A stretch of 64,000 nt of DNA from an uncultured Thiotrichales bacterium (GTDB taxonomy: Bacteria > Pseudomonadota > Gammaproteobacteria > UBA4575), in the NCBI GenBank assembly GCA_964486815.1, contig CAZAOO010000013.1, positions 9,965-73,964 on the forward strand. Direction: 5' to 3'. The position numbers were made by a program, and so were the translations under genes. The first letter of the stretch is position 1. Every line of letters begins with the position of its first letter. The notes beneath the pieces are model-generated. The model ran no database searches. It saw only the letters and a list, made by a program, of their open reading frames with translations, and was not told the origin of the DNA. Positions 9,820 to 59,393 of this stretch are shown here, piece by piece.

Positions 9820-9896
9820 GGCTATGTAGCTCAGCTGGTTAGAGCACAGCATTCATAATGCTGGGGTCGTTGGTTCAAATCCAACCATAGCCACCA
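9820..9896 (+). tRNA. tRNA-Met (CAU), intact, with encoded CCA
   Basis: ggctatgtagctcagctggttagagcacagcattCATaatgctggggtcgttggttcaaatccaaccatagccacca. Full cloverleaf. Accessory DNA begins immediately downstream. Confidence 0.85.
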
Positions 9897-10032
9897 TTTT
9901 CTTATTTAAGTAATTGTTTTTTGAAATGCATTGGGCGATCACAACAAACTATTACAAAAAATTTTAAACTAAGTACAATTGAGCACTATAATTCAGTGCA
10001 ATAGTCAGGCTAATTTCAAACTGATTAAAATC

Positions 10033-10098
10033 AATCGAGTCTGACCCCATTGATTCTCCAAATCGAGTCTGACCCCATTGATTCTGACCATTGATTCC
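10033..10098. repeat. two tandem 25-nt direct repeats (aatcgagtctgaccccattgattct) plus a partial third (gaccattgattcc)
   Basis: Read directly. Copy 1 at 10033-10057, copy 2 at 10061-10085, partial at 10086-10098. About 140 nt downstream of tRNA-Met at the island boundary. Confidence 0.8.
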
Positions 10099-13339: not shown

Positions 13340-13523
13340 TTGCTAAGTGTGCATCAAGATGTGCTGTATGATCAAATTATATGTATATGCTATTGACTAA
13401 ATGAAGCCAAATTATCTAGGTAATACAACTTTTATACAATGTATTTTCAACAGTGTTATGTCTAGCTTAAATGTTGATAGATGAGAATTTGAACTTTTAT
13501 TGTCAATGCATAGCGATTAAAAC

Positions 13524-13982
13524 ATGCCTAAATCTACCGAGTTAAGTGTAATTGGCTGGCGTGAATGGGTGTCGCTACCTGATTTAGATATAGACCAAAT
13601 TAAGCGCAAAGTAGACACAGGTGCTAAAACTTCTGCATTACATGCTTAATTTATCGAACCATTTAATATATCAGGAGTTGACTATGTGCGGTTTGGATTG
13701 CACCCATTACAAAAAAGTTCCAAGGGAGAGGTGATTTGTACCAGCAAGGTCGTCGATCAGCACGCAGTAACTGATTCGGGCGGCCACCGTGAAACTAGAT
13801 ATGTTATCTTCACACGAATAAAACTATCCCAGCATACTATTGATGCTGAGATTACACTTACCGATCGTGATAGCATGACGTTTAGAATGCTGCTTGGGCG
13901 TAATGCAATAAAAAATCAGTTTATAGTCCATCCTGCATGTTCGTATTTAATTGGTAAAAAGAAAAAGACAGGTCCAAAATGA
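13524..13982 (+). pseudogene. RimK-associated ATP-dependent zinc protease (retropepsin-like) interrupted by an in-frame TAA at 13647-13649
   Basis: ATG 13524 gives [45 protein letters not shown] follows, and the same frame continues FIEPFNISGVDYVRFGLHP… to 13982. The stop at 13982 overlaps the rimK start, as in intact homologous pairs. Confidence 0.65.
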
Positions 13983-14932: not shown

Positions 14933-15945
14933 GTGATTGAAAAAATCAGCATTGCTAGCAATGATATAAAACCTGCAACAAGCTCTGTACTACAACTTGA
15001 GCTTCCTCCGTTATATACCAATACGCCTTTGACCATGCCTGTACATGTGATTCGAGGCAAGAATGATGGTCCTAAGTTATTTGTCAGTGCTGCAATTCAT
15101 GGTGATGAACTAAATGGTGTCGAGATTGTTAGAAGATTAATTAAAAAGATATCAGTAAAACGACTTACTGGTACTTTGATCGCTGTACCTGCAGTAAATA
15201 TATATGGAATGTTACAACATTCACGCTATCTGCCTGATCGCGAGATCTAAATTGCTGTTCCCCGGGTTCTTTGCAAGGCTCATTGGCTGGGCGGTTGGCA
15301 TATTTGTTTATGAATGAGATCGTATCCAACTGTGCCTGTGGCATCGATCTTCATACTGCTGCACTGAATCGTAGCAATCTCCCCCAAATACGCGCAGATT
15401 TAAGCGATGAAAAAATTTCAGGATTAGCTACTGCCTTTGGTGTTCCAGTAATTGTTAACTCAAAACTTCGTGATGGTTCTTTGCGTGAATCTACCACAGC
15501 TAAGAAAGTGCATGTACTTGTGTCCGAGGCGGGTGAAGCTATGCGTTTCAGTGAATCAGGGATCAAAGCGGGCCTAACTGGAATATTAAATGTGATGAGG
15601 TATGTGAATATGATTCCGCCTCCAACAAAAGGCGTACGGACTAATAGTGTTCCACAAGTAGCTCAATCAAGTAACTGGATGCGTGCTCCTGTAAGTGGTA
15701 TTTTCAGAACCAGAACTCGTTTGGGAAAAGAAATTAAAAAAGGACAGATCATCGGATATATAGAAGATGTATGTGATTACCATAATCAAGAAGAAATTGT
15801 TGCGCCTGATGATGGCATCATCATAGGTCAGTCGCATATCCCTCTGGTTTATGAGGGTGACCCTTTGTTTCACGTTGCTTATTTTAAGAATGTGAAGAAA
15901 GCAGTGCAAAGCCTGGATGACTTTGAAACCGAACAGACTACGTAA
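14933..15945 (+). pseudogene. succinylglutamate desuccinylase/aspartoacylase (AstE/AspA) family protein split by a frameshift near 15240
   Basis: Frame A reads …YLPDREI* (stop at 15248). Frame -1 reads RDLNCCSPGSLQGSLAGRLAYLFMNEI…, which restores the family DLNRxFPG-type motif. The two listed ORFs (105 aa and 224 aa) are halves of one gene. Confidence 0.7.
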
Positions 15946-16040
15946 ATATGTGTTAAAGATTTTCACTTTTCAATAATTGCAATTAATTTAATGCAGTCAA
16001 CTTCTATATATGGAAAATATAATTTAAAATTAATAGTCAA

Positions 16041-16085
16041 TGTTCATAATGCTGGGTCGGTAGTTCAAGCCCACCCATAGCCACC
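16041..16085 (+). repeat. degenerate copy of the 3' half of tRNA-Met (att-like island junction)
   Basis: tgttcataatgctgggtcggtagttcaagcccacccatagccacc aligns with anticodon loop through acceptor 3' strand of the intact tRNA-Met at 9820-9896. Confidence 0.75.
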
Positions 16086-16255
16086 GCACTTGCGACTGGG
16101 TATTATGCGCAAGTTAGCTGTGTAGAAAGGCACACATATAGTTAGTAAAGCACAACAAGTTCGTCATAAGTCCGTCAGTAAAATTAATATTACCGTTATT
16201 ATTTCCTAAATATTACATTTGTTAGGAAGGAACATTTACCAGAGGTTGCGCCTGC

Positions 16256-16846
16256 TTATTCTTCTTCATAGATATCTAATTTTACTTCTTTCATGCTATA
16301 GGAAGCGGGTCCATATTCGCTATTGATACTTTCTGTTGTCATGGTGCCTTCAATCCAGACTGCATTATCTAACCACTTTTGATCAAGTGGTTTGGTCGAG
16401 TTTACGTATACCATTTGATTAGATGGAGGTGGTGGCACATGTATGCATGCACCAAAGTAAGGAGCTAATAAGAACTCATTAAAGATACCATTATCAAAAT
16501 CATACTCTAAAGGCACAATAAAACCCGCAAGTTTTATATATTGACCATTTAACTCAGGCACAATAGGTGCTGAGCGTAACGATACCAGTAATTCATCATA
16601 GGCTTGTTGCGCTTTTTCGGAATCATCTTCGATATCGTCAAAACCAAGAGCGTCACCAAAATTATCAAATATTCCGCTCAATGTTGATTGCTGTTTTTGT
16701 TGCAAATTTTCAAAATAACCTTCAGGTGCAAGGTCATCCCAGGTCAATTCTTTAGCTTCCTTCGCTAGTAATGTTGAGCTTATTATAGATACGAAAACCA
16801 GAAAATTCAGCGCAAGAGAAAAATATTTATTAGAGAAATAATTCAT
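16256..16846 (-). CDS. DUF3299-like periplasmic protein (ZrgD-like)
   Basis: 196 aa with signal peptide. Last gene of the Zur-box operon, directly downstream of the ABC permease. Confidence 0.55.
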   Translation of the reverse strand: MNYFSNKYFSLALNFLVFVSIISSTLLAKEAKELTWDDLAPEGYFENLQQKQQSTLSGIFDNFGDALGFDDIEDDSEKAQQAYDELLVSLRSAPIVPELNGQYIKLAGFIVPLEYDFDNGIFNEFLLAPYFGACIHVPPPPSNQMVYVNSTKPLDQKWLDNAVWIEGTMTTESINSEYGPASYSMKEVKLDIYEEE

Positions 16847-18111
16847 GTGCGTATGGTCAGCCCGTCTTGTAAAGTTTTCCTATAAGCACTGATCGCAGGG
16901 AAGATTGCGGCGATCAGTCCGCCTGTAATAATGGTTAACAGTATGAGCCATTGGAGCTTGGTTGGTGCATGAAGTTCAATGTTTAATCCATAGGTATTAA
17001 ACAAAATAGGGTTAATCAAAGCCAGCGAAGTGTATAGAATTATTAAGCCTAAAAGAATGCCAAGTATTACCAATATTTCTGATTCAATTACCATTAGTGA
17101 AAATATTGTCTTTGGTGAAGCACCAACTGAACGAAGGACCGCAATTTCACGGCGACGCTCATTTAGGTTGGTTAAAATAATGGCTAACATCCCTAGTAAG
17201 CCGGTCACAACAACAAGTGCTGCGATAATCAACATTACTTTTTCAATAGCGCCTACAACTTTCCATAGTTCCATGAGAGCAATACCTGGAATAATTGCGA
17301 GTAGAGGCTCAGATTTATAGTTGTTGATTCCACGTTGAATGGAGAAGATGTCTTGTTTATTTTTAAGTCCAAGTAAAAATGCTGTTATGGATTTGATTTG
17401 AAGTCTAGAATCATCTTCTTTTAAGTTGTCCGTCTGAATTGACTGCTGATTAGGTACGCCTTGTTCCCAACCTATATGCACGGCTTCTAATCCTTTTAAT
17501 GATATTAATACAGATCGATCTATGGGGGTCCCAGTTGGTTTTAATATGCCTGTTACAGTAAAAGGTAAGTTTTTATGTTCAGCAAAACTCACGTTCCCCA
17601 TTCCATGTGCCAGGATGATTTTATCACCAAGTTGATAATTAAGGGTTTTTGCAACTTCTGCACCAAGGACTGTATCAAAGATCCCTGAAAATTCTTCTCC
17701 GCTTAAGAAGGATAACTTATAACGTTTTCCATAATGATAATATTGAAATATATCTCTTGTCGTGCCAACGACTCTATGTCCTTTGTGAGAATCACCCAGA
17801 GAAATAGGGATGCTCCAATTTACACGTGGATGGTTGATGATTTTGTTATAGCTTTCCCATGAAACGTTATTCGTTGCATTTCCTAAATGAAAAACACTAT
17901 ATAGCAATAATTGCGCAGAACCGCTTCGCGATCCCACAATCAAATCTGTACCACTAATGGTATTGGCAAATTTTTCTTTGGCTTGTACACGTATGATATC
18001 TACACCTAGAAGTAACACAACACTGATTGCTAGTGAGAAGATGGCTAAACCAATAGAAAGCTTACGAAATCGAAGGCTTTTTAAAGCTAGTTGGATAATT
18101 TTGATGTTCAT
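16843..18111 (-). CDS. ABC transporter permease, MacB/LolC/FtsX type (ZrgC-like)
   Basis: 422 aa. N-terminal TM, large periplasmic domain, C-terminal FtsX-like TM bundle. Overlaps ATPase gene by 4 nt. Confidence 0.8.
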   Translation of the reverse strand: MNIKIIQLALKSLRFRKLSIGLAIFSLAISVVLLLGVDIIRVQAKEKFANTISGTDLIVGSRSGSAQLLLYSVFHLGNATNNVSWESYNKIINHPRVNWSIPISLGDSHKGHRVVGTTRDIFQYYHYGKRYKLSFLSGEEFSGIFDTVLGAEVAKTLNYQLGDKIILAHGMGNVSFAEHKNLPFTVTGILKPTGTPIDRSVLISLKGLEAVHIGWEQGVPNQQSIQTDNLKEDDSRLQIKSITAFLLGLKNKQDIFSIQRGINNYKSEPLLAIIPGIALMELWKVVGAIEKVMLIIAALVVVTGLLGMLAIILTNLNERRREIAVLRSVGASPKTIFSLMVIESEILVILGILLGLIILYTSLALINPILFNTYGLNIELHAPTKLQWLILLTIITGGLIAAIFPAISAYRKTLQDGLTIRT

Positions 18112-18812
18112 GCGTTTTCGACTGAGCTAAAGTCATTTAACGAAACAGAGCGATCGAATAAACTTGCTAATGTAAGGTCATGGCTGACAAATAATATCGC
18201 ACTATTACTTTTCATTGCTTCTTCAAATAATAGTTCTAAAAAGCCCTGTTTGGCATCTTGATCTAATGCCGAGGTGGGTTCATCTGCAATGATAATTTCA
18301 GGAGAGCCGATCAAAGCACGCGCTGCTGCTACACGTTGTTGTTGGCCAGTACTGAGCTCGGTGACATTTTTATAGATAATATCTTTGTCTTTTAAACCAA
18401 GTGCGGCTAATAACCTTAACGCTTCTTCCATAGTATTGCGTTTTTGTATAGATAACATTTCTCGTCTGCGCCATGAAAATAGACAGGGTAGAGTGATATT
18501 CTCTAAAACGTTGAGATAGGGTATTAAATTGAATTGTTGAAAAATTATACCCATGTGATCAGCTCGATACTGATCGCGTAATTTTTGTTTTTGGGAGAAT
18601 AAATTTTTTCCTAAAACAGTAATTTCTCCATGGGTAGGTTTGAGAACTCCTGAAATCAGATTTAATAAAGTTGTTTTCCCGCAACCACTTGGCCCGTGAA
18701 TAAATAACTTTTCTGCTTTTTTAAGAATCAGTGATTCAATATTGATTAAAGGCTTTTGGGTATTCTCCCAACAAAATTCAATATTTGATAACTGAATACA
18801 GGTTTGAGACAT
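18108..18812 (-). CDS. ABC transporter ATP-binding protein (ZrgB-like)
   Basis: 234 aa. Walker A GPSGCGKTT, signature LSTGQQQRVAAARAL, Walker B IIIADEPTSALD. Confidence 0.88.
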   Translation of the reverse strand: MSQTCIQLSNIEFCWENTQKPLINIESLILKKAEKLFIHGPSGCGKTTLLNLISGVLKPTHGEITVLGKNLFSQKQKLRDQYRADHMGIIFQQFNLIPYLNVLENITLPCLFSWRRREMLSIQKRNTMEEALRLLAALGLKDKDIIYKNVTELSTGQQQRVAAARALIGSPEIIIADEPTSALDQDAKQGFLELLFEEAMKSNSAILFVSHDLTLASLFDRSVSLNDFSSVENA

Positions 18813-18833
18813 AGAATAATTGATTTGATTTTG

Positions 18834-19460
18834 TTATTTTAATGATAGCGCACGTGTATTTGGTGTTGCAGTAAATAGATTTTGGCTCTCATTAGAAACA
18901 AATTGTACTTCAATCTTCTCAATTGTGGGGAAGTGATCAAATATTATATATTCAATTGATTCTGGGTTGTCGTGTGAGCAGCTGTATTTATAATGAATGG
19001 ATACATCGCTATGTTCTCCATCATTGTGTGATTCATCGTGATGATGTTCGTCTGAACCATGACCATCATGACCATCATGACCATCATGACCATCATTCTC
19101 TTTATTAACTAAATCAAAAATTCTACTTTCAAGGCTGACAGAATCAAGTTTGCATGCATTAGTTGGGTATATAGTAACAATGTTATCGTCACTTTCTAGT
19201 ATGGTCTTAGCATTTGTAATGCTTTTACGCTCTTCATTATTAAGTGGTTCATGCTCAAATCCAAATACGTCTATGGAGGGTAGTAATATCTCTAAGCTGA
19301 GTGTTTCGTCAATAAACGTAATTTGAGAAGTGGCCTGACCATGTACATGTGCTGCATGTTCCTCATGATCTGTTTCCAAGTGATGGTCTTCACCCGCATA
19401 TAAACTGATGCAGGAGGTTGTCATAAAAACTGCAATTAAATATTTAAGTATTTTCATCAT
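18834..19460 (-). CDS. His-rich periplasmic metal-binding protein (ZrgA / DUF2796-like)
   Basis: 208 aa. Signal peptide. Repeated DGHDGHDGHDGHGSDEHHHDESH and HEEHAAHVHG segments. Confidence 0.65.
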   Translation of the reverse strand: MMKILKYLIAVFMTTSCISLYAGEDHHLETDHEEHAAHVHGQATSQITFIDETLSLEILLPSIDVFGFEHEPLNNEERKSITNAKTILESDDNIVTIYPTNACKLDSVSLESRIFDLVNKENDGHDGHDGHDGHGSDEHHHDESHNDGEHSDVSIHYKYSCSHDNPESIEYIIFDHFPTIEKIEVQFVSNESQNLFTATPNTRALSLK

Positions 19461-19501
19461 GGTTGATATCTTTGGTTTATATGCAAGAAGTCATTTGGTT
19501 T

Positions 19502-19924
19502 CTAATTAGCAGATTTGACTTTGCATTTTCTTGTAGCTATTAGGTTAAACATGTGGCCTGACGCGTGAATTATACCTCCAAAGATGGTCAGCCAGGTTTC
19601 TGCTGTGTGAGGTATTGTGTGGTTTGCAATTAATGTTCCTGCATAAACTGCAGTAAATACTAATATCGTCAAACCTAATAATGAGATTATGGTGGGCGAA
19701 ATATTTCTATGAAAACGATATCCGGATATCGTGGCAAGAATACTCACTGGCAAAATAAATATTAGAATAAACTGGTGAAACCAGAATTCATGTAACGCAT
19801 GTCCATAGTGTATCGTAGTAGATATTAAGGGGATTAGGCTGGCAACAATTGGGAAAATCGCACAGTGAATAGCACATATACCTGATAGAGAAATTGCTAA
19901 ATGATCAAATTTATCTTGTAACAT
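19502..19924 (-). CDS. MerC-like small integral membrane protein (Cys/His motif CAIHCAIFP)
   Basis: 140 aa, 4 predicted TM helices, Cys-x-x-His-Cys motif. Paralog of the next gene. Confidence 0.5.
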   Translation of the reverse strand: MLQDKFDHLAISLSGICAIHCAIFPIVASLIPLISTTIHYGHALHEFWFHQFILIFILPVSILATISGYRFHRNISPTIISLLGLTILVFTAVYAGTLIANHTIPHTAETWLTIFGGIIHASGHMFNLIATRKCKVKSAN

Positions 19925-19999
19925 AATTATTATTAGTAAACTGAAAACAGTACTTGATGATGAAAAAAGTAACGAACGCCACTTCTATGTACTGCTTTG

Positions 20000-20398
20000 T
20001 TACTGATATGCACAGGTTTTATGATATTGGCATAAACGATAATTCCATATGTGAGAAGCAGCAATAATCGCTGCGCCGATGACTGTGAATGCTTTTTCTA
20101 AACTTTCTCCTAATAAATCGTGACCAAAAAGGGCAACCAGGCACAAAGTTAACAAGCCGATGCCGCCTAGCATTAATACTGGGTAGTGCTTGTGATTTTT
20201 GCAGCCCATTGTTAGTGCATAGGCGGAAATCGGCAAAATAGCAATTATCATCCATACATGAAATATTTCATCATTTAATGGCAAGGCTGCAATAGATGGG
20301 AGTAAAACAGCTAAAAGAGGTAGAGCTAAGCAGTGAATTGTGCATAGTAAAGATAAACTAATAGCTGTTTTATCTGTTATGAATTGAGTATTAACCAT
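20000..20398 (-). CDS. MerC-like small integral membrane protein (CTIHCLALP)
   Basis: 132 aa. Same architecture and motif as 19502-19924. Confidence 0.5.
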   Translation of the reverse strand: MVNTQFITDKTAISLSLLCTIHCLALPLLAVLLPSIAALPLNDEIFHVWMIIAILPISAYALTMGCKNHKHYPVLMLGGIGLLTLCLVALFGHDLLGESLEKAFTVIGAAIIAASHIWNYRLCQYHKTCAYQ

Positions 20399-20402
20399 TT
20401 AA

Positions 20403-22430
20403 TTATTCAAACTCAAGTGAGACACCTAGAGTAGCGCCTATACTAGGTAGCACAACACGGTCTTTTGTGAAGGAAGTATGTTGGCGTGCATCTTCATCCA
20501 ATAAATTTTCACCTCTAAGAAATACTTTTATGTCTGAATCACCGGCATAAAATGTCTTCGTTAAACTTGCGTTCAACATGGTGTAACTATCGGTATCGGT
20601 TTCAAGATCAGCTTCGTTGTTTGAGTCATCTACAAAGACAAGATCAACGGTTCCACTCCAAGTGTTACGAAAGCCCTCTAAGCCCAAGCCTAAGCGCCCA
20701 GTGGGAATACGCGGCACATCACCTGCATCGCTATCGTCAAACTCTGCTCGCACATAATCACCAAAAATGCGGCCACGCAGATCATATTTGCTATTGCTAA
20801 CAAGTTGCTTCACAAATTCTACTTCAATGCCGTAAAACTCCGCATCTTCATTTTCATATACACCGGCAAGTAACTCACCATCAAGCTCGAACATGCCTTC
20901 TTCATCTGTACGATCGGCGATGCCGTCATTATTGGCATCCAAAGACGCGAGATAAATGAAATCATCAATGCGGTTGTAGTAGGTATTAACCGCCCAGCTG
21001 TAACTGCTTTTATTTTGTTCTAGACCAATTTCAAAATTGTAGGACGTCTCCTCATCAATATTGGTAGAGCCGGTTTCAAATGTGAGGGTCGCTAGATGCG
21101 GGCCGTCAGCATATAAAGCGGTTTCTTGTGGTGCACGTTCAGTACGGGCAACAAATACATTCAATTGCATATCATTAGCCAATTGGCGTTGCGCACCGAA
21201 TGAAACTGAGTACACGCTAAAGTCTTCATCATCACCATTGTCAGGCTCAAATTCATCGCGATCAAAGCGTAGACCACCTTCTAAATCCCATAGCTCGTTG
21301 TGATAATGGCTTATTGCAAAGATTCCAAAGCGTTCTTGATCCAGTGGCGGAATAAATGCTTCTTCGCCTTCTGCAGCAAACTCGCGATCGTTATATTGCA
21401 CACCAAAGGCATTTTTCCAATCGTCATTGATGGTATGAATAAACTCGAGTCTTGATTCTAGCTCTTCATTATCAAATGCCGTAGCCACTTCTCCATCTTC
21501 TTCAATTTCAAAATGGCGGTAGTTGTTGTAAGCGGAGCGTAATGATATTTTTTCAATGTTGTTGAAGGGGTTATACAATTCTGCAAGCATGTCATAGCGA
21601 TATTGTTTTAAATCGATACGAATATCACCCTCTTCGGCTCCTGGCACACCAAAATTGGTGTCAAATCGATTATAGCCAAAGCCGATCATGCCTTTATCAG
21701 AAATATAACTTGCACCAAAACCATGGTTATCGGTTTCTACATCACTATTAGCTAATCGCCCTTTGTTTTCAGGTTCTTCTTCATTTGCGAAACCATCGAT
21801 ATCATAATCATTGGTATCGCGGGTTAAGCCATCGAAATGCCATGCAAAGTTATTAGTTGCGCCATTAAGTTCTAAAGCAGCTGTTTCACCGTCTGATACC
21901 GTGTCATGCTCCACTGCGGCTTTTAACTCAAATGGGCCTGTTTGTAGTGATTTTGGAATGCGATTATTAATGATATTAACAACACCACCAATGGCACCCG
22001 GCCCAAAACGCAATGTCGAAGGCCCACGCAAGATTTCAACTTGATTGGCAAAGTAGGGTTCAATCGACACAGGATGATCTTCACTAAGGCTGGAAACATC
22101 TAATGCGCCAATACCGTTTTCAAGTACCCGCACTCGGTTGCTACCTAGACCACGAATAATGGGGCGACTGGCACCGGGCGCAAAGGAAGTAGCGTTCACG
22201 CCTAGTTCATATTTAACAGTTTCACCAATTGAATTGGATTTTTTACGTTCCAATTCTTCACCGCTGAGGATGGTGACAGATTGAGCGAAATCATCTGGTT
22301 TTTCACCAGGAAACCATTTTGATTCAATTACAATTTCGGGTAAATCAATGGTTCCTGTTACTGATTGGTCATCTGCATACAGGTTAAAGCTTGAGAAACA
22401 TAGTAAACATATAGCTACACGGGCGTACAT
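20403..22430 (-). CDS. TonB-dependent outer-membrane receptor (Zur-regulon, ZnuD-like)
   Basis: TonB box-like N-terminus, plug and barrel motifs, C-terminal …LGVSLEFE with terminal aromatic. Likely start MYARVAICLL… at 22430 with GGAG upstream; the ORF track extends to a TTG at 22442. Confidence 0.85.
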   Translation of the reverse strand: MYARVAICLLCFSSFNLYADDQSVTGTIDLPEIVIESKWFPGEKPDDFAQSVTILSGEELERKKSNSIGETVKYELGVNATSFAPGASRPIIRGLGSNRVRVLENGIGALDVSSLSEDHPVSIEPYFANQVEILRGPSTLRFGPGAIGGVVNIINNRIPKSLQTGPFELKAAVEHDTVSDGETAALELNGATNNFAWHFDGLTRDTNDYDIDGFANEEEPENKGRLANSDVETDNHGFGASYISDKGMIGFGYNRFDTNFGVPGAEEGDIRIDLKQYRYDMLAELYNPFNNIEKISLRSAYNNYRHFEIEEDGEVATAFDNEELESRLEFIHTINDDWKNAFGVQYNDREFAAEGEEAFIPPLDQERFGIFAISHYHNELWDLEGGLRFDRDEFEPDNGDDEDFSVYSVSFGAQRQLANDMQLNVFVARTERAPQETALYADGPHLATLTFETGSTNIDEETSYNFEIGLEQNKSSYSWAVNTYYNRIDDFIYLASLDANNDGIADRTDEEGMFELDGELLAGVYENEDAEFYGIEVEFVKQLVSNSKYDLRGRIFGDYVRAEFDDSDAGDVPRIPTGRLGLGLEGFRNTWSGTVDLVFVDDSNNEADLETDTDSYTMLNASLTKTFYAGDSDIKVFLRGENLLDEDARQHTSFTKDRVVLPSIGATLGVSLEFE

Positions 22431-22486
22431 TATTAACTCCAATATAAAACCCTATAATTAGGGTATGAAAACTAGGGTATGAAAAA

Positions 22487-22813
22487 TTATGAATTTTTAA
22501 GAGGATTAATTACGTAAGGAGGTGCGCGTGCTTTAGTGAAGTACTGATAGGTCGTGAATGTATGGTTTGTTGAAAATGCTAATGTTTCTTGTACATAAAA
22601 GTGTTGTATTAGTGGTAAATAATTATCAAGAGATGAATCAGAAAATTTTAATAGTACGAGACAGATTTCGCATTCGTTAGAGCCGGGTTCATTGTCAATG
22701 TGTTCATATCCATGCTGCGCATTTAGCCAAAGGGATATCAAGAGTATTGATGCAATTAGCGATCTACATATAGAAGACTTATGCATGTATTTAGGTGAAA
22801 ATGAGTCAAGCAT
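22487..22813 (-). CDS. small secreted Cys-containing protein (probable true start MHKSS… at ~22786)
   Basis: 108 aa in the ORF track. An internal Met gives a signal peptide MHKSSICRSLIASILLISLWLNA. CEIC motif. The Zur box abuts the annotated ATG. Confidence 0.45.
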   Translation of the reverse strand: MLDSFSPKYMHKSSICRSLIASILLISLWLNAQHGYEHIDNEPGSNECEICLVLLKFSDSSLDNYLPLIQHFYVQETLAFSTNHTFTTYQYFTKARAPPYVINPLKNS

Positions 22814-22815
22814 TG

Positions 22816-22836
22816 TAATGTTATATTATAACACTA
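22816..22836. promoter_or_regulatory. Zur box (taatGTTATAtTATAACacta)
   Basis: 6-1-6 perfect palindrome GTTATA-T-TATAAC with AAT/ATT-like flanks. Matches the gammaproteobacterial Zur operator consensus. Lies immediately upstream of the 8-gene minus-strand operon. Confidence 0.7.
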
Positions 22837-22949
22837 ATTTCTTGAAGTAAACAGCAATCGTCCATTTTGTATTATGAGCGAGAATACAATCTGAATTCAC
22901 TTGGGGTTTTGGTCGGTCGAAACAATGCTTCACACAGGGCTTTAATCTG

Positions 22950-22997
22950 GCATTCATAATGTTGGGGTCGGTGATTCAAGTCCACCCATAGCCACCA
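22950..22997 (+). repeat. second degenerate copy of the tRNA-Met 3' half
   Basis: gcattcataatgttggggtcggtgattcaagtccacccatagccacca. Its T-arm is closer to the copy at 16041-16085 than to the intact gene. Confidence 0.75.
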
Positions 22998-23049
22998 TCC
23001 TAGTATATTCACATTCTGATCACTCATAGAAATTAATACCTGTTAGATC

Positions 23050-23727
23050 TGATGTTTTCCGCTTCTGGTTGGTTATTGCCTGAGTACATTAATTGGTTTG
23101 CAATATAACGATAAAGGATTTTCTACGGTCGGAGAAGAGGCGTTTATTTCGGCAGTTGAGTCTGATCGTTATGGGTTGTTTGTGATAACACAAAAAGAGT
23201 TCAATAAATGGAATATTGAATTTAGTGTGCGTGCGGAGCAGGTCGACTATGATCCCCAGTTTTTTTGCTGATGAAGATTTTGATGTCTATTCGCTATCGT
23301 TTGGCCTCATTCGAAAGCTACCCAATGACTTGAAAATACGCTTTAACCTGAGCCGATTCGAACGTCCACCAGAAGAATCAGCCTGTTTGCAGAAGGACCG
23401 CACTTGGCTACACTTACCTTCGAGCGTGGCAACACAACTATTGATGAAGAGGTTTTTAACAACTTGGAGATTGGGTTAAGTCAAGAAAATCGCAATACAA
23501 ACTGGCAGTTAAATGCATTCTATAATCGAGTGGATAATTTTATTTTTCTATCATCAGTGGATGAGAATAATGATGGCTTAGCAAACCGTGTAGATGAAGA
23601 AGGCATGTTTGAACTCGATGGAGAGTTGCTCCTGGGTGACTTTGTTAATGAAGATGTGGAATTTAATGCCGAACGTGTTCCACTACCAGGTATTGGCGCC
23701 AAATTTGGAATTTCTGTGAAATACTAG
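23050..23727 (+). pseudogene. decayed C-terminal remnant of a paralogous TonB-dependent receptor
   Basis: Three frames piece together …AEQVDYDPQFFADEDFDVYSLSFGLIRKL… / …LATLTFERGNTTIDEE…MFELDGELLLGDF…GISVKY. These align with the last ~220 aa of the receptor at 20403-22430. No N-terminus, several frameshifts. Confidence 0.7.
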
Positions 23728-33492: not shown

Positions 33493-34674
33493 TTATCTGG
33501 TTCTACTTTCTAGTGGTGCTTTTTCCCAAGGGTAGCCATCTTTAGCAAGTTCATAGCCAATTCTAAATAATGCTTTTGTATATTCTGGATCAAATGATTG
33601 CTTGGGCTTTAAGTTAAATGATTTAGGGATAATTGCTAAGTTAAATTCTATACCGTCTCGTGATGTGATTTCATATATTCTATACAAATCACCTATAGCT
33701 TTATTTTCAATTGTCATGCTTAGAGATTTAAGCGCAATTGAATATAGGTTGGTGTTTACCGGTTCATATATCGCTTGGCTACGGCCGTTACGAATTATGA
33801 AAAGTCTTCGTTGTATCTTGTTTTCTTCATGTATTAATCTAGTTTCAACTAACTGAGGTGGGTAAAGAAAAGCTTGTCGGGTCACTCCTCCATCTACATG
33901 TAATTCGGTAAATTGTTGATTATCTACAGTGACATTAATAATTACAGGCGGAAATATTCCTGGTACTGCCGATGAGGCTAGCAATATATTGTGGACTAAA
34001 TCGAGAGCATTAAGCTTGCCACTCAATGCTATTTCGCCGATATCCCAAATTACAGGTCTGCCTGCATCAAGATTTGTAGTGCCTATCCACAGGCGTCGTC
34101 CCTGCAGGTGTTGTTGTGCAATTTGACTGAGCACATCAATGGTTACATATTTACGTATTAAGTTTTTCAGGGGTCGCGTGTCTAATATAGAGCTGCCACC
34201 AAATATGCCGCTGAAAATTTGTGTTCTATAAATGTCTTCATGCCCCAGGTTTGAATATACATTTAAAAGAATTGCATCATACTCGGGGCCAAGGAAAATA
34301 AAGGGTGCGGCAAGTGCGCCCGCGCTAACACCTGTTACTACATCAAACTCAGGGCGATCACCATTTTGAGTCCAGCCGGTGATAATACCCGCAGCAAACG
34401 ACCCGTCTTCTCCACCACCAGATAGTGCTAGAAAATTAATGGTGGGTTTTGAATGGCCATTGTCACTTTGTTGTGAGCGTTGTTTAAGCCATGCTTTAAC
34501 ATTATGAGCTTTTCGATAGCTGCCAGTTTCTTCATCGCCCCAAAATCGTATCGAAGGCGAATTCATGACGTTAGCTTTTGATACTAATTGCTCTGGTACA
34601 GGTGCATGAATTATTGAAGTTGTACAGCCGGTAATGGAGAACAAGATAAAGGCAATTAGTATTTTTAAATGCAT
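33493..34674 (-). CDS. patatin-like phospholipase, lipoprotein
   Basis: 393 aa. Lipobox FSITGCTT. Gly-rich oxyanion loop LSGGGEDGSFAAG. GxSxG serine GVSAGAL. Confidence 0.8.
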   Translation of the reverse strand: MHLKILIAFILFSITGCTTSIIHAPVPEQLVSKANVMNSPSIRFWGDEETGSYRKAHNVKAWLKQRSQQSDNGHSKPTINFLALSGGGEDGSFAAGIITGWTQNGDRPEFDVVTGVSAGALAAPFIFLGPEYDAILLNVYSNLGHEDIYRTQIFSGIFGGSSILDTRPLKNLIRKYVTIDVLSQIAQQHLQGRRLWIGTTNLDAGRPVIWDIGEIALSGKLNALDLVHNILLASSAVPGIFPPVIINVTVDNQQFTELHVDGGVTRQAFLYPPQLVETRLIHEENKIQRRLFIIRNGRSQAIYEPVNTNLYSIALKSLSMTIENKAIGDLYRIYEITSRDGIEFNLAIIPKSFNLKPKQSFDPEYTKALFRIGYELAKDGYPWEKAPLESRTR

Positions 34675-34923
34675 ATTTAAGATTGCAGTATTCAGGCTGT
34701 GTATCTAGGTTTAAATCGGATAATTAAGCAACATTATAAAGAATTGCTATTAATATTATTGACTAATTAAATTATGTAACCGTTGGGATTTCAGTGGATT
34801 TTTCCATAAAAGGAACTTTCTTCTATAGTCAGACTCAATTAAATATCATTAATTTCAAGATTTATATATTAGTAAGATCTGATGATGAAGATTTATTGGC
34901 TCTTTAGCAACCGGGGGGTAGGA

Positions 34924-35277
34924 ATGAAAAAGTTATTAGTGCTTCTAGCGATATTACTTGCAGCTACATCAACAAATGCTGTGGTGTACAATTTTTTTAA
35001 TGGAGAGAGATTGTCAGAAGCAGCTTTGGAGTGGGAAAAATCGCAAACTCATCCAAAAGATTCTGATTTGTTATTGGTCACAGAGTTCGCCGGTTATGTG
35101 GGTGCAATGTTTGATCATTTATCAGAAAAACAACATATTTGTGCACCAGATGAAATTTCTAAAAACCAGGTGCTAAAAGTTGTTGCAGAATACTTAAAAA
35201 ATAACAGGAAAGGGCTAAAATATTCTGGTTCAATTTTAGTTAAAAAGGCATTATATAAAAAGTATTCCTGTACTTAG
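34924..35277 (+). CDS. small secreted protein (two Cys; possibly Rap1a/Tai4-like periplasmic immunity-type protein)
   Basis: Start at internal ATG with AGGA SD. MKKLLVLLAILLAATSTNA signal. AT-rich context. Confidence 0.4.
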   Translation: MKKLLVLLAILLAATSTNAVVYNFFNGERLSEAALEWEKSQTHPKDSDLLLVTEFAGYVGAMFDHLSEKQHICAPDEISKNQVLKVVAEYLKNNRKGLKYSGSILVKKALYKKYSCT

Positions 35278-59265: not shown

Positions 59266-59393
59266 AATAGTAGTGATTTATAAATTTATATAAATAATAA
59301 TAAGCGTAATTGTGGTTTACCGATATATTGTATCAATAGCGTAATTAAATAATGTCTACTGGATCAAGTAATTGTTTTACATGACTAAATCTT

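Follow-up and report, generated by a model that had tools for sequence, protein, structure and literature searches.

The window, a 64-kb stretch of a contig from a metagenome assembly, holds a minus-strand operon behind what had been taken for a Zur operator. This raises the questions of whether the operon serves zinc uptake, what its small first ORF does, and whether the segment is mobile cargo. From the sequence, we take it, with moderate confidence, to be a zinc-acquisition operon that is repressed by Zur, has a metal-sensing leader ahead of zinc-uptake genes and lies in a variable region anchored by tRNA-Met.

Gene content of the operon

22487..22786, minus strand: leader upstream ORF (uORF), 99 aa, defined by family alignment
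20403..22430, minus strand: ZnuD-like TonB-dependent receptor, 675 aa; Pfam Plug and barrel
20000..20398, minus strand: MerC-like membrane protein 1 (MerC1), 132 aa, four helices; PF03203 at 104.6 bits (cut-off 27.6)
19502..19924, minus strand: MerC-like membrane protein 2 (MerC2), 140 aa; PF03203 at 79.3 bits (cut-off 27.6) and tblastn
18834..19460, minus strand: ZrgA-family periplasmic zinc-binding protein with a His-rich (DGH)n loop; PF10986 at 138 bits
18108..18812, minus strand: ABC ATPase (ZrgB / PA4064 type); PF00005
16843..18111, minus strand: MacB-type permease (ZrgC / PA4065 type); MacB_PCD and FtsX
16256..16846, minus strand: DUF3299 protein (ZrgD/ZrgE / PA4066 type); PF11736 at 136 bits

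The genes abut or overlap, as a sequence-only reading had stated, since the successive gaps are 56, 4, 75, 41, 21, -4 and -4 nt. Its gene inventory is likewise confirmed by domain searches (Pfam, NCBIfam, PDB), which find a ZnuD-like TonB receptor, two MerC-family proteins, ZrgA, a MacB-type ABC ATPase with its permease, and DUF3299; the HMM scores for ZrgA, DUF3299 and both MerC proteins are those listed above. The receptor start was set at ATG 22430, which has a GGAG 6 nt upstream, in place of TTG 22442. The best NCBIfam model of the receptor is ZnuD (406 bits, E 3.8e-121), far under the curated cut-off of 950, and among solved structures ZnuD of Neisseria meningitidis (PDB 4rdr, E 1.7e-53) is its best match. 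The receptor gene stands behind a Zur box and, unlike that of ZnuD, sits between a leader uORF and MerC-like genes. ZrgA matches PA4063 (7ahw, E 6.5e-16) and the zinc-binding protein 8ezw, the DUF3299 protein matches 4hsp (E 3.9e-27), and the best NCBIfam models of the ATPase are LolD, DevA and FtsE (MacB type).

ZrgA (DUF2796), a MacB-type ABC pump and a DUF3299 protein also form one Zur-controlled unit in ZrgABCDE of Vibrio cholerae and V. parahaemolyticus and in PA4063-PA4066 of Pseudomonas aeruginosa, where these genes are zinc- and Zur-regulated. The match to ZrgABCD proposed earlier is correct. Here, however, these genes make up the distal half of a longer operon, in which a leader uORF, the TonB receptor and the two MerC-like genes come first, and the small DUF2607 protein of unknown function included in Vibrio zrg operons is absent. 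PA2911-PA2914, named earlier as a second counterpart, was rejected as a homologue: it shares with the present operon its control by Zur and a TonB receptor at the start, but this receptor is of siderophore type, as is its ABC importer, which is not MacB-like, and ZrgA and DUF3299 are missing. That cluster has been assigned to pyochelin-cobalt import; the homologous one is PA4063-4066. A receptor closest to ZnuD and a ZrgA, MacB-type ABC and DUF3299 set of the Zrg / PA4063-4066 kind together point to zinc. The 64-kb window contains no mer, cop or cus genes, and the zur gene of the source organism was not found within it.

The MerC-like proteins

MerC1 and MerC2 are about 31% identical. Both show a clear relationship, over the full PF03203 profile, to MerC of mercury-resistance operons, and like it are small four-helix inner-membrane proteins with Cys in helix 1. 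They are set apart from it by a C-x-x-H-C motif and further invariant His (in MerC1, the alignment gives C19, H22, C23, H47, H69, H116 and N119 as invariant), and by their neighbours, which are zur, zrgA and ZnuD-like genes rather than mer genes. Canonical plasmid merC genes gave no tblastn match at E <= 1e-3. An AF2 model of MerC1 (pLDDT 79) found no significant solved neighbour in a structural search, and no MerC-family protein is known to move zinc.

Gene context was counted in 79 species-level loci collected with the MerC alignment. In 47/79 a Fur-family gene, which scores best as Zur (86 bits vs 50 for Fur), immediately precedes the MerC1-type gene; zrgA is just upstream in 33/79, zrgB/C within 10 kb in 32/79, and a ZnuD-like receptor adjacent in 8/79. 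In 49/79 a Zur-like palindrome is found no more than 400 nt ahead of a zinc gene. A plasmid MerC copy adjoins DUF3299 and ABC genes, and a homologue of MerC1 in locus L005 lies beside a cation-efflux (CDF) gene. The MerC2 type was seen only in the window and in locus L009 among the fetched loci. MerC-like genes are regular members of zinc loci; far from being odd extras, they recur in marine Gammaproteobacteria alongside zur, zrgA and ZnuD-like genes. By analogy with MerC, the proteins may be zinc permeases.

Zur operator, promoter and start of the first ORF

22814..22836, no strand assigned: Zur operator with two overlapping dimer sites, from pattern matches
22820-22832, within the Zur operator: core palindrome GTTATAtTATAAC
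22825..22833, minus strand: extended -10 element TGTTATAAT inside the Zur box, read from sequence, predicted position

The 21-nt string first proposed as a Zur operator is present at 22816-22836 exactly as quoted. Positions 22814-22833 (TGTAATGTTATATTATAACA) show 0 mismatches to TGWNAYRWTATAWYRTNWCA, the structure-based Zur pattern of E. coli (PMC4219657); this is the sole such site in 64 kb, where 0.00 are expected (100 shuffles). The operator has 1 mismatch to the 19-nt consensus AATGTTATAWTATAACATT (0.12 sites expected even at <=3 mismatches) and, by manual count, 4 to the 23-nt consensus GAAATGTTATANTATAACATTTC, a scan for which at <=3 mismatches did not find it. The perfect core palindrome recurs 20-54 nt upstream of a homologous uORF in 7 loci, and also in L013, and a Zur box occupies the same place before the orthologous modules of L009, L013, L025, L029, L095, L096 and L097. 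Its perfect match and its conserved position show the operator to be real.

The extended -10 element, with a transcript start predicted near 22817-22819, lies inside the box, which supports the earlier suggestion that the box occludes the promoter. A simple sigma-70 scan did not list this element because there is no good -35 there. From the -10 only ~5 nt remain before the annotated ATG of the first ORF, and relatives align from residue 10 of the leader query or later (9 in one case). For these two reasons the start was moved to the internal Met already suspected; it is most likely ATG 22786 (MHKSS...), before which no clear Shine-Dalgarno sequence was seen.

A putative arrest leader

22517..22528, minus strand: RAPP codons CGC GCA CCT CCT, putative ribosome arrest site by analogy with CruR
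22449..22464, minus strand: hairpin ACCCTAATTATAGGGT then TTTATATT, a terminator-like scan match between the uORF and the receptor gene

The first ORF had been described as a small secreted CEIC protein. Rather than those of a structural component, it carries the hallmarks of a regulatory arrest peptide of the CruR/CutF type: an export signal (residues ~4-24), a group H25/E28/H29, the C39-E-I-C42 motif, a 44-residue spacer and R87-A-P-P90. Across the family the CXXC is invariant and RAPP near-invariant; the distance between them is 44 (range 43-46) in 20 members, and the spacer sequence is poorly conserved despite its fixed length. RAPP is the demonstrated arrest element of CruR, in which mutating it abolishes expression downstream and no protein product is detectable (PMC9426467); in >2000 DUF2946 proteins the CXXC-RAPP spacing is 45 +/- 1-2. 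CruR (Bp2923, Bordetella pertussis) and CutF (Rhodobacter capsulatus) are both copper-responsive, with opposite polarity. Common to them and to our leader are the N-terminal export signal, the CXXC with a C-terminal RAPP/proline motif some 45 residues after it, and the first place in the operon; CruR, like our leader, has a TonB transporter directly downstream. By this analogy, the small ORF, with its CruR/CutF (DUF2946-type) layout, resembles a leader that senses metal through ribosome stalling. It belongs, however, to a subfamily that stays below the Pfam DUF2946 threshold (weak matches in 4/14 members, best E 0.0058), has additional invariant His/Glu, and stands between a Zur box (in the receptor-linked members examined) and zinc-uptake genes. 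The uORF-receptor spacer is 56 nt here vs 162 nt in the CruR/CutF system, and holds a hairpin where the latter has a C-rich Rho site. The accounts of CruR/CutF arrest peptides that were consulted mention neither zinc nor Zur.

Context was checked in ten relatives in which it could be read. In eight, a perfect Zur core palindrome lies upstream and a ZnuD-like receptor downstream; one runs into a contig end, and the most divergent heads a ZnuA/ZnuB operon. A Zur box precedes every receptor-linked leader locus whose upstream region was examined, a count that leaves out the ZnuA/ZnuB-linked member, and the leader is always the first gene where context is readable. The metal sensed would most likely be zinc. 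Loci L011, L019 and L079 contain the receptor and MerC genes but lack the small ORF, so the transport machinery is independent of it.

In L009, L025, L029 and L013 hairpins with differing stems occur at the equivalent place, which in L096 is taken by a strong intrinsic terminator. The hairpin of the window is weak, and folding of the full spacer is not stronger than in shuffled sequences (z -0.38). Pairing is predicted between the arrest-footprint region and the receptor start in the window (12.0 bp vs 6.2 in shuffles, 11/200) and in L009 (14.7 vs 8.4, 2/200); it was not significant in 6/8 loci.

The tRNA-Met region

9820..9896, plus strand: intact tRNA-Met (CAT), anchor of the variable region; ARAGORN
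16040..16086, plus strand: tRNA-Met 3' half fragment at the downstream boundary of the operon, from anticodon loop to acceptor end
22950..22998, plus strand: tRNA-Met 3' half fragment at the upstream boundary, 90% identical to 9849-9897

Known parallels are genomic islands anchored at tRNAs and cis-mobilizable, att-flanked elements that lack an integrase and accrete in tandem. As in such islands, the repeats here are tRNA 3' halves starting in the anticodon loop, the segments lie in tandem and the cargo varies. The two 47-49 nt fragments bracket the operon in the orientation of the intact tRNA; the window and L009 cease to be homologous exactly at the one at 22950..22998, and the ~85 nt after 16086 resemble the sequence that follows tRNA-Met in L090. 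Two relatives with flanking genes 72-95% identical, L090 and L089, carry at this tRNA-Met a TetR-Rieske segment bounded by its own tRNA fragment and no zinc operon; their tRNA-Met is 3.1 kb from the P-II-like gene, vs 14.1 kb in the window. The operon could also be an old resident of the lineage, the fragments being scars of passing elements. We find this doubtful in view of the repeats, the homology break and the different cargo of these relatives, but it agrees with L009, where this operon borders directly on the same AstE-RimK genes with no tRNA fragment, with the GC content (0.381 in the segment vs 0.386 in the window), and with the gene content: unlike in tRNA-anchored islands, there is no integrase, excisionase or transfer gene between tRNA-Met and the last repeat, nor any transposase in the operon segment. 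Of the earlier description as horizontally acquired island cargo, the island part is thus supported by the sequence, whereas neither composition nor mobility genes support horizontal acquisition.

Alternative explanations

The small first ORF might encode a stable secreted or membrane-anchored metallochaperone that receives zinc from the receptor for delivery to ZrgA or MerC, without any part in regulation. Its export signal, its invariant His/Glu/CXXC, its co-transcription with the receptor in every readable locus and the small DUF2607 protein of Vibrio zrg operons would suit such a protein. It would leave unexplained the near-invariant C-terminal RAPP and a spacing that is fixed while its sequence is not, which is the CruR signature; moreover, the AF2 model is confident for the N-terminal helix only (pLDDT 56-65 after residue 30), and three loci have the receptor and MerC without the ORF. 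We consider a chaperone unlikely. Quite improbable, in our view, is that the module serves copper, cobalt, cadmium or mercury, with a copper-sensing leader, MerC-like carriers of thiophilic metals and export of a cobalt-metallophore by ZrgBC. CruR and CutF are indeed copper sensors, MerC is a mercury transporter for which one study reports cadmium accumulation, and PA4063-4066 has been tied to cobalt-pyochelin export, but that route is itself described as a response to zinc deficiency. The Zur boxes of the receptor-linked leader loci, the ZnuA/ZnuB operon headed by the most divergent leader, the zur-like gene directly before MerC1 in 47/79 genomes, the ZnuD-like receptor, the absence of mer, cop and cus genes from the window and the unmatched plasmid merC all argue for zinc.

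If zinc is the substrate, the MerC-like proteins need not be its importers: they might instead work with ZrgA and ZrgBC as membrane partners or sensors, serve as redox helpers, or protect against overshoot as exporters. For this subfamily transport is a prediction, MerC1 homologues sometimes lie beside a CDF gene, as in L005, and the MerC1 model has no significant solved neighbour. We nevertheless think such roles not very likely, given solid membership of the MerC transporter family, conserved intramembrane Cys/His/Asn/Glu that fit a metal path, and co-occurrence with uptake, not efflux, genes under uptake-repressing Zur-type boxes. In addition, an inner-membrane importer would otherwise be missing from these loci, because MacB-type pumps are described as exporters.

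A model for dual control of zinc uptake

Returning to the zinc-acquisition operon with a sensing leader, we propose that in a zinc-sufficient cytoplasm Zur bound at 22814-22836 would cover the extended -10, and that zinc starvation would allow transcription from about 22818. The export signal of the leader would carry the nascent chain to the membrane, and the ribosome would arrest at R87-A-P-P90, with the H25/E28/H29/C39/C42 cluster, 44 residues upstream, just out of the ribosome tunnel. Metal, most likely zinc, bound at this cluster would release the arrest, as copper does in Bordetella CruR, after which the mRNA would either refold over the receptor start region or terminate at the hairpin in the 56-nt spacer. 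The ZnuD-like receptor would carry zinc across the outer membrane, ZrgA would hold it in the periplasm, and the two four-helix Cys/His MerC-like proteins would carry it across the inner membrane, much as MerC mediates Hg(II) uptake; the MacB-type ZrgBC pump and the DUF3299 protein would somehow support uptake. Expression of the uptake genes would thus need both low cytoplasmic zinc, read by Zur, and low envelope zinc, read by the leader. Metal-sensing stalling leaders of this kind have so far been described only for copper, and a zinc case would differ in this respect.

The zinc operon and its relation to known zinc systems

The gene content proposed for this operon in the sequence-only reading was borne out by Pfam, NCBIfam and PDB sequence searches, and the HMM searches for ZrgA (PF10986), DUF3299 (PF11736) and MerC (PF03203) all returned matches. 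Downstream of a small leader ORF (uORF), the genes are the following:

20403-22430, minus strand, TonB-dependent receptor, with ZnuD as best model and best solved relative
20000-20398, minus strand, MerC-family protein 1 (MerC1; PF03203)
19502-19924, minus strand, MerC-family protein 2 (MerC2; PF03203), about 31% identical to protein 1
18834-19460, minus strand, ZrgA, with PA4063 and a zinc-binding protein of solved structure among its relatives
18108-18812, minus strand, ABC ATPase (PF00005)
16843-18111, minus strand, MacB-type permease (MacB_PCD and FtsX)
16256-16846, minus strand, DUF3299 protein (PF11736)

The intergenic gaps, in gene order, are 56, 4, 75, 41, 21, -4 and -4 nt, which is consistent with a single transcription unit. 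The receptor scores 406 bits against the NCBIfam ZnuD model NF038289, under the curated cut-off of 950; despite this sub-threshold score, ZnuD is by far its best relative in the PDB. A megablast search of the whole operon against plasmids gave no match.

The distal four genes correspond to the Zrg system of Vibrio and to PA4063-PA4066 of Pseudomonas, both of which are zinc-regulated (PMC9817125 and PMC11481552, respectively). The proposed likeness to ZrgABCD thus stands: ZrgA, the MacB-type ABC pair and the DUF3299 protein share one unit, in which stop and start codons overlap. One difference is that the Vibrio zrg operon carries a DUF2607 protein (PMC9817125), whereas no such small protein was matched among the eight operon products. 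The parallel with PA2911-2914 had to be given up. At that locus, a TonB receptor is paired with an ABC importer of the siderophore type (PMC11481552), whereas the ABC pair of the window is of the MacB/FtsX type, and the two architectures are not homologous. The Pseudomonas pair PA4064/4065 has itself been argued to be a MacB-type exporter (PMC11481552), which leaves the inner-membrane route of zinc in Zrg-type loci unsettled.

Within zrgA, four tandem 9-nt copies (CATGACCAT, plus strand; 19058-19102) encode a (DGH)n run in the His-rich loop, the length of which could change through slippage at these repeats.

The Zur operator and the promoter

The source of the contig is a stromatolite metagenome, and the organism is an uncultured gammaproteobacterium. 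The 21-nt string claimed as a Zur box is present, letter for letter, at 22816-22836. Positions 22814-22833 match the structure-based E. coli Zur pattern TGWNAYRWTATAWYRTNWCA (PMC4219657) without mismatch; this is the sole such site in the 64 kb, and none arose in any shuffle (expected number 0.00). The box differs at one position from the 19-nt core consensus and, by our own count, at four from an older 23-nt consensus, for which a scan allowing up to three mismatches gave none. Published patterns do recognize the palindrome.

An extended -10 element (TGTTATAAT), read from the sequence, lies inside the box on the coding (minus) strand, so that bound repressor would cover the promoter. Operator and core promoter of this operon thus overlap, and the operator is conserved in orthologous loci: in seven loci, a perfect core palindrome lies 20-54 nt 5' of the homologous uORF. 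No additional Zur-like site was found inside the operon, and the zur gene of this organism is absent from the window. Binding and repression by Zur are predicted from these features, and the operon is very probably a Zur-controlled zinc operon.

A second Zur-like palindrome (GATATATTGTATC, 59316-59335) has two mismatches to the 20-nt pattern. Its neighbours are a ketopantoate-reductase-like gene on one side and, on the other, an unknown gene belonging to a polysaccharide cluster. With about 7 sites expected when up to three mismatches are allowed, it is probably there by chance.

A leader ORF that resembles metal-responsive arrest peptides

The annotated start of the first ORF (ATG 22813) had been suspected to lie too far upstream. 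This is supported by the relatives of the ORF, almost all of which align from residue 10 or beyond, and by the translations from related loci, which begin at the same point; the real start is therefore taken to be ATG 22786, giving a 99-aa product. Moreover, transcription is predicted to start only ~5 nt before ATG 22813, which makes the annotated start implausible. These relatives are not easily found. A word-indexed homologue search returned only the protein itself, while an exhaustive search of 1.84 billion representatives yielded about 12 relatives of 91-103 aa. One hit of the latter search, a 389-aa repeat protein (P0127), is devoid of the leader motifs and was discarded as a false positive.

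The leader carries a hydrophobic export segment (residues 4-24), followed by the invariant residues H25 and E28, by C39-x-x-C42 and, within a few residues of the stop codon, by a near-invariant R-A-P-P. The CXXC and RAPP motifs are 44 residues apart in the window and 43-46 apart in 20 members, with a poorly conserved spacer sequence. The DUF2946 family is defined by the same elements: CXXC and RAPP about 45 residues apart (+/- 1-2), an export signal, and first place in metal-transport operons (PMC9426467). The leader shares all of these and is a possible member of that family: against PF11162 (DUF2946), 4 of 14 members of the leader family give sub-threshold matches (best E 0.0058) and the window protein gives none. 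A profile of the leader family had no match among PDB sequences, and the AlphaFold model is confident for the signal helix only; CruR has also been reported as poorly structured.

Two DUF2946 peptides have been studied as copper-responsive uORFs. Ribosomes translating Bordetella CruR are arrested at RAPP; copper, acting via the CXXC, relieves the arrest, whereupon Rho terminates transcription before the TonB transporter gene (PMC9426467). On Rhodobacter CutF, copper prolongs stalling, and a stem-loop that hides the ribosome-binding site of the next gene melts (PMC9973294). Zinc and Zur go unmentioned in the published CruR and CutF accounts that we compared. In its sequence features the working resemblance of the leader to these peptides is strong.

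Genomic context ties the leader to zinc. Ten loci had a readable context, and in eight of them (the window; L009, the closest relative; L013; L025; L029; and L095-L097) a perfect Zur core palindrome lies 5' of the uORF and a ZnuD-like receptor gene, 59-92% identical, comes next, starting within ~40-75 nt of the uORF in the seven loci with measured spacing. A ninth locus (L100) is cut by a contig end and retains an 82-residue partial gene after the uORF. The last one (L099, 2737-5934), from a low-GC organism, has the most divergent leader, with CQIC and a CXXC-RAPP spacing of 46 residues; it heads an operon for an unknown 421-aa protein, ZnuA and a ZnuB-type permease. In all nine loci with complete context, the leader is the first gene. 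The unit formed by the Zur box, the leader and znuD stands alone in L095-L097, is found with merC1 in L013 and L029, and is divergent from or beside zrgABCD in L025 and L029. The common form elsewhere is zrgA-zur-merC plus zrgD/zrgBC. The window and L009 fuse all these modules into one eight-cistron operon.

How an arrest might be read out was sought in the RNA between the uORF and the receptor gene. In the window, part of this spacer forms a hairpin with a T-run behind it. Relatives also have a hairpin there, built from other stem sequences; that of L096 is a strong intrinsic terminator. In minimum-energy folds, the RAPP codons or the next 15 nt, i.e. the part that a stalled ribosome would cover, pair with the Shine-Dalgarno or start region of the receptor gene. 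This pairing was equalled in 11 of 200 shuffles for the window, which is marginal, and in 2 of 200 for L009; it was not significant in the other six loci. The RAPP codons themselves are predicted to act as an anti-Shine-Dalgarno sequence in L025, L095 and L097; this arrangement was considered for the window and is not predicted there. RNAalifold, applied to four spacers, gave 5 pairs with one compensatory change only, and an Rfam scan over 15900-23200 returned nothing real.

Because the pairing is only marginal against shuffles, the mechanism is stated by analogy alone. By that analogy, a ribosome arrested on the leader would keep the downstream gene expressible, and metal bound to the nascent chain would end the arrest and shut the gene down. 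Such a polarity, with arrest keeping expression on and metal turning it off, suits an uptake system. By comparison with CruR and CutF, the leader probably acts as an arrest peptide; that zinc is the metal it senses is a little short of an even call.

A MerC subfamily associated with zinc regulons

MerC1 and MerC2 match PF03203 over the full profile with 104.6 and 79.3 bits, respectively (gathering threshold 27.6). The genes of mercury resistance were not found around them: merR, merT, merP and merA are absent among the searched window products and the annotated related loci, and canonical plasmid merC genes and plasmid mer operons gave no match at E <= 1e-3. The MerC1 family has four predicted helices and the invariant residues C19, H22, C23, H47, H69, H116 and N119. 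Foldseek comparison of the MerC1 model with the PDB gave nothing with E below 0.7, and its top matches, to ZnT1, are not meaningful. A terminator-like match inside merC2 (19784-19772) has a 5-bp stem within coding sequence and was treated as chance.

A search with an alignment of MerC1 relatives against one genome per species yielded 79 loci, mostly from marine Gammaproteobacteria. In 47 of these, the MerC1-type gene comes directly after a Fur-family gene, 25-40 nt 3' of it and in the same orientation (L007/L015, 8884-10399, and 46 further loci); Zur is the best-scoring assignment for that Fur-family gene. The gene zrgA is found just 5' in 33 of the 79 loci, zrgB/zrgC occur within 10 kb in 32, and a ZnuD-like receptor gene adjoins in eight. 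Zur-type palindromes are present within 400 nt 5' of one of these zinc genes in 49. A plasmid copy in Catenovulum adjoins the DUF3299 gene and the ABC pair. Thus, this subfamily belongs to the MerC family and is strongly associated with zinc regulons in its genomic context. We found no description of a link between MerC and Zur, ZnuD or zinc uptake in a full-text literature search. Whether these proteins import zinc, a role suggested by sequence and gene neighbourhood, is evenly balanced.

Two of the related loci deserve mention in their own right. In L007, the pair of zur-like and MerC-like genes sits among transposase and restriction genes. In L005/L011 (7795-11107), a ZnuD-like receptor gene and merC1 are divergent, and the spacer between them has Zur-like boxes; merC1 is directly followed by a cation-efflux (CDF) gene, and the leader uORF is absent.

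The operon at a tRNA-Met site

The operon is bracketed by two direct repeats of a tRNA-Met 3' half, and an intact copy is present in the same region:

9820-9896, plus strand, intact tRNA-Met
16040-16086, plus strand, tRNA-Met 3' half, beginning in the anticodon loop, oriented as the intact tRNA-Met
22950-22998, plus strand, tRNA-Met 3' half, beginning in the anticodon loop, oriented as the intact tRNA-Met

The homology between the window and L009 stops exactly at the upstream fragment. Two other related loci, L090 and L089, have flanking genes 72-95% identical to those of the window; the distance from the tRNA-Met to the P-II-like gene is 3.1 kb in them and 14.1 kb in the window. They carry there a 2.3-kb TetR-Rieske (oxygenase) segment, bounded by its own tRNA-Met 3' fragment (L090, 12048-14414; L089, 2769-5135). 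Neither has the zinc operon there, and the L090 interval also lacks the RimK/CorA block. In both, the repeat continues for ~50 nt beyond the end of the tRNA and takes in a hairpin. In the window, the ~85 nt behind the downstream fragment are similar to what comes after the tRNA in L090. Its differing occupancy marks this tRNA-Met site as a hotspot for integrase-less cargo that differs from genome to genome.

The description of the operon as island cargo therefore stands as regards direct tRNA repeats and variable occupancy; mobility genes and a deviating composition were not found. No integrase is present between 9897 and 36237, on either side of the operon, and the GC content of the segment (0.381) does not deviate from that of the window (0.386). 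In L009, the operon adjoins the same AstE-RimK genes, with AstE directly beside ZrgD, and there is no tRNA fragment. The lack of mobility genes, a GC content at the window mean and the fragment-free L009 argue against a recent transfer. Arrival of the segment as cargo targeted to tRNA-Met is nonetheless the reading that we favour, with reasonable though not high confidence.

Several other features were observed nearby. About 100 nt beyond the upstream tRNA-Met fragment are the remains of another ZnuD-like receptor gene (23098-23727, plus strand), frameshifted, without its first ~345 codons and with a deletion inside. They share 43% identity with residues 347-536 of the operon receptor and are absent from L009 and L090. 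An AstE/AspA-like gene (14933-15945, plus strand) is split into 105 + 224 aa, and a RimB-like gene (~13400-13900, plus strand) into 98 + 41 aa, while both are intact in L004/L009 (337 and 149 aa, respectively); either gene decay or assembly error accounts for this. A 25-nt sequence (AATCGAGTCTGACCCCATTGATTCT) occurs as two perfect copies with a 3-nt gap at 10033-10085; this is ~140 nt 3' of the intact tRNA-Met, where the variable region has its left end. Farther away, at 33493-35277, a patatin-like phospholipase gene lies close to one that encodes a Rap1a immunity-protein domain; the two may form an effector-immunity pair.

Significance

The initial interpretation of this region was largely right; it missed the probable zinc-linked arrest-peptide leader and the zur-linked MerC subfamily. 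Jointly, these two elements lead to a tentative reading, which we regard as somewhat less likely than not. A previously unrecognized branch of the CruR/CutF peptides, invisible to Pfam, would sense zinc and add a co-translational, envelope-level checkpoint to the Zur control of uptake genes, namely those for ZnuD-type receptors and, in more distant bacteria, ZnuA-type importers. The C-x-x-H-C MerC subfamily, co-transcribed with zur in many marine Gammaproteobacteria, would be the missing inner-membrane zinc permease working with ZnuD and ZrgA. If true, the permease would explain how Zrg-type loci import zinc despite an ABC pump of the MacB exporter type.

To our knowledge, metal-sensing arrest peptides were described in 2022-2023 only, and for copper only. 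A zinc-linked branch behind Zur boxes would make the mechanism general, and would show that uptake genes can be gated by two zinc sensors reading different compartments. The tRNA-Met site, for its part, shows that integrase-less cargo segments are exchanged at one tRNA. Finally, the zur-linked MerC proteins are a testable candidate for the inner-membrane passage of zinc delivered by ZnuD or ZrgA, beside the MacB-type ABC pair. Because many marine Gammaproteobacteria carry their genes and zinc is scarce in that habitat, they may matter for the cycling of trace metals in the ocean.
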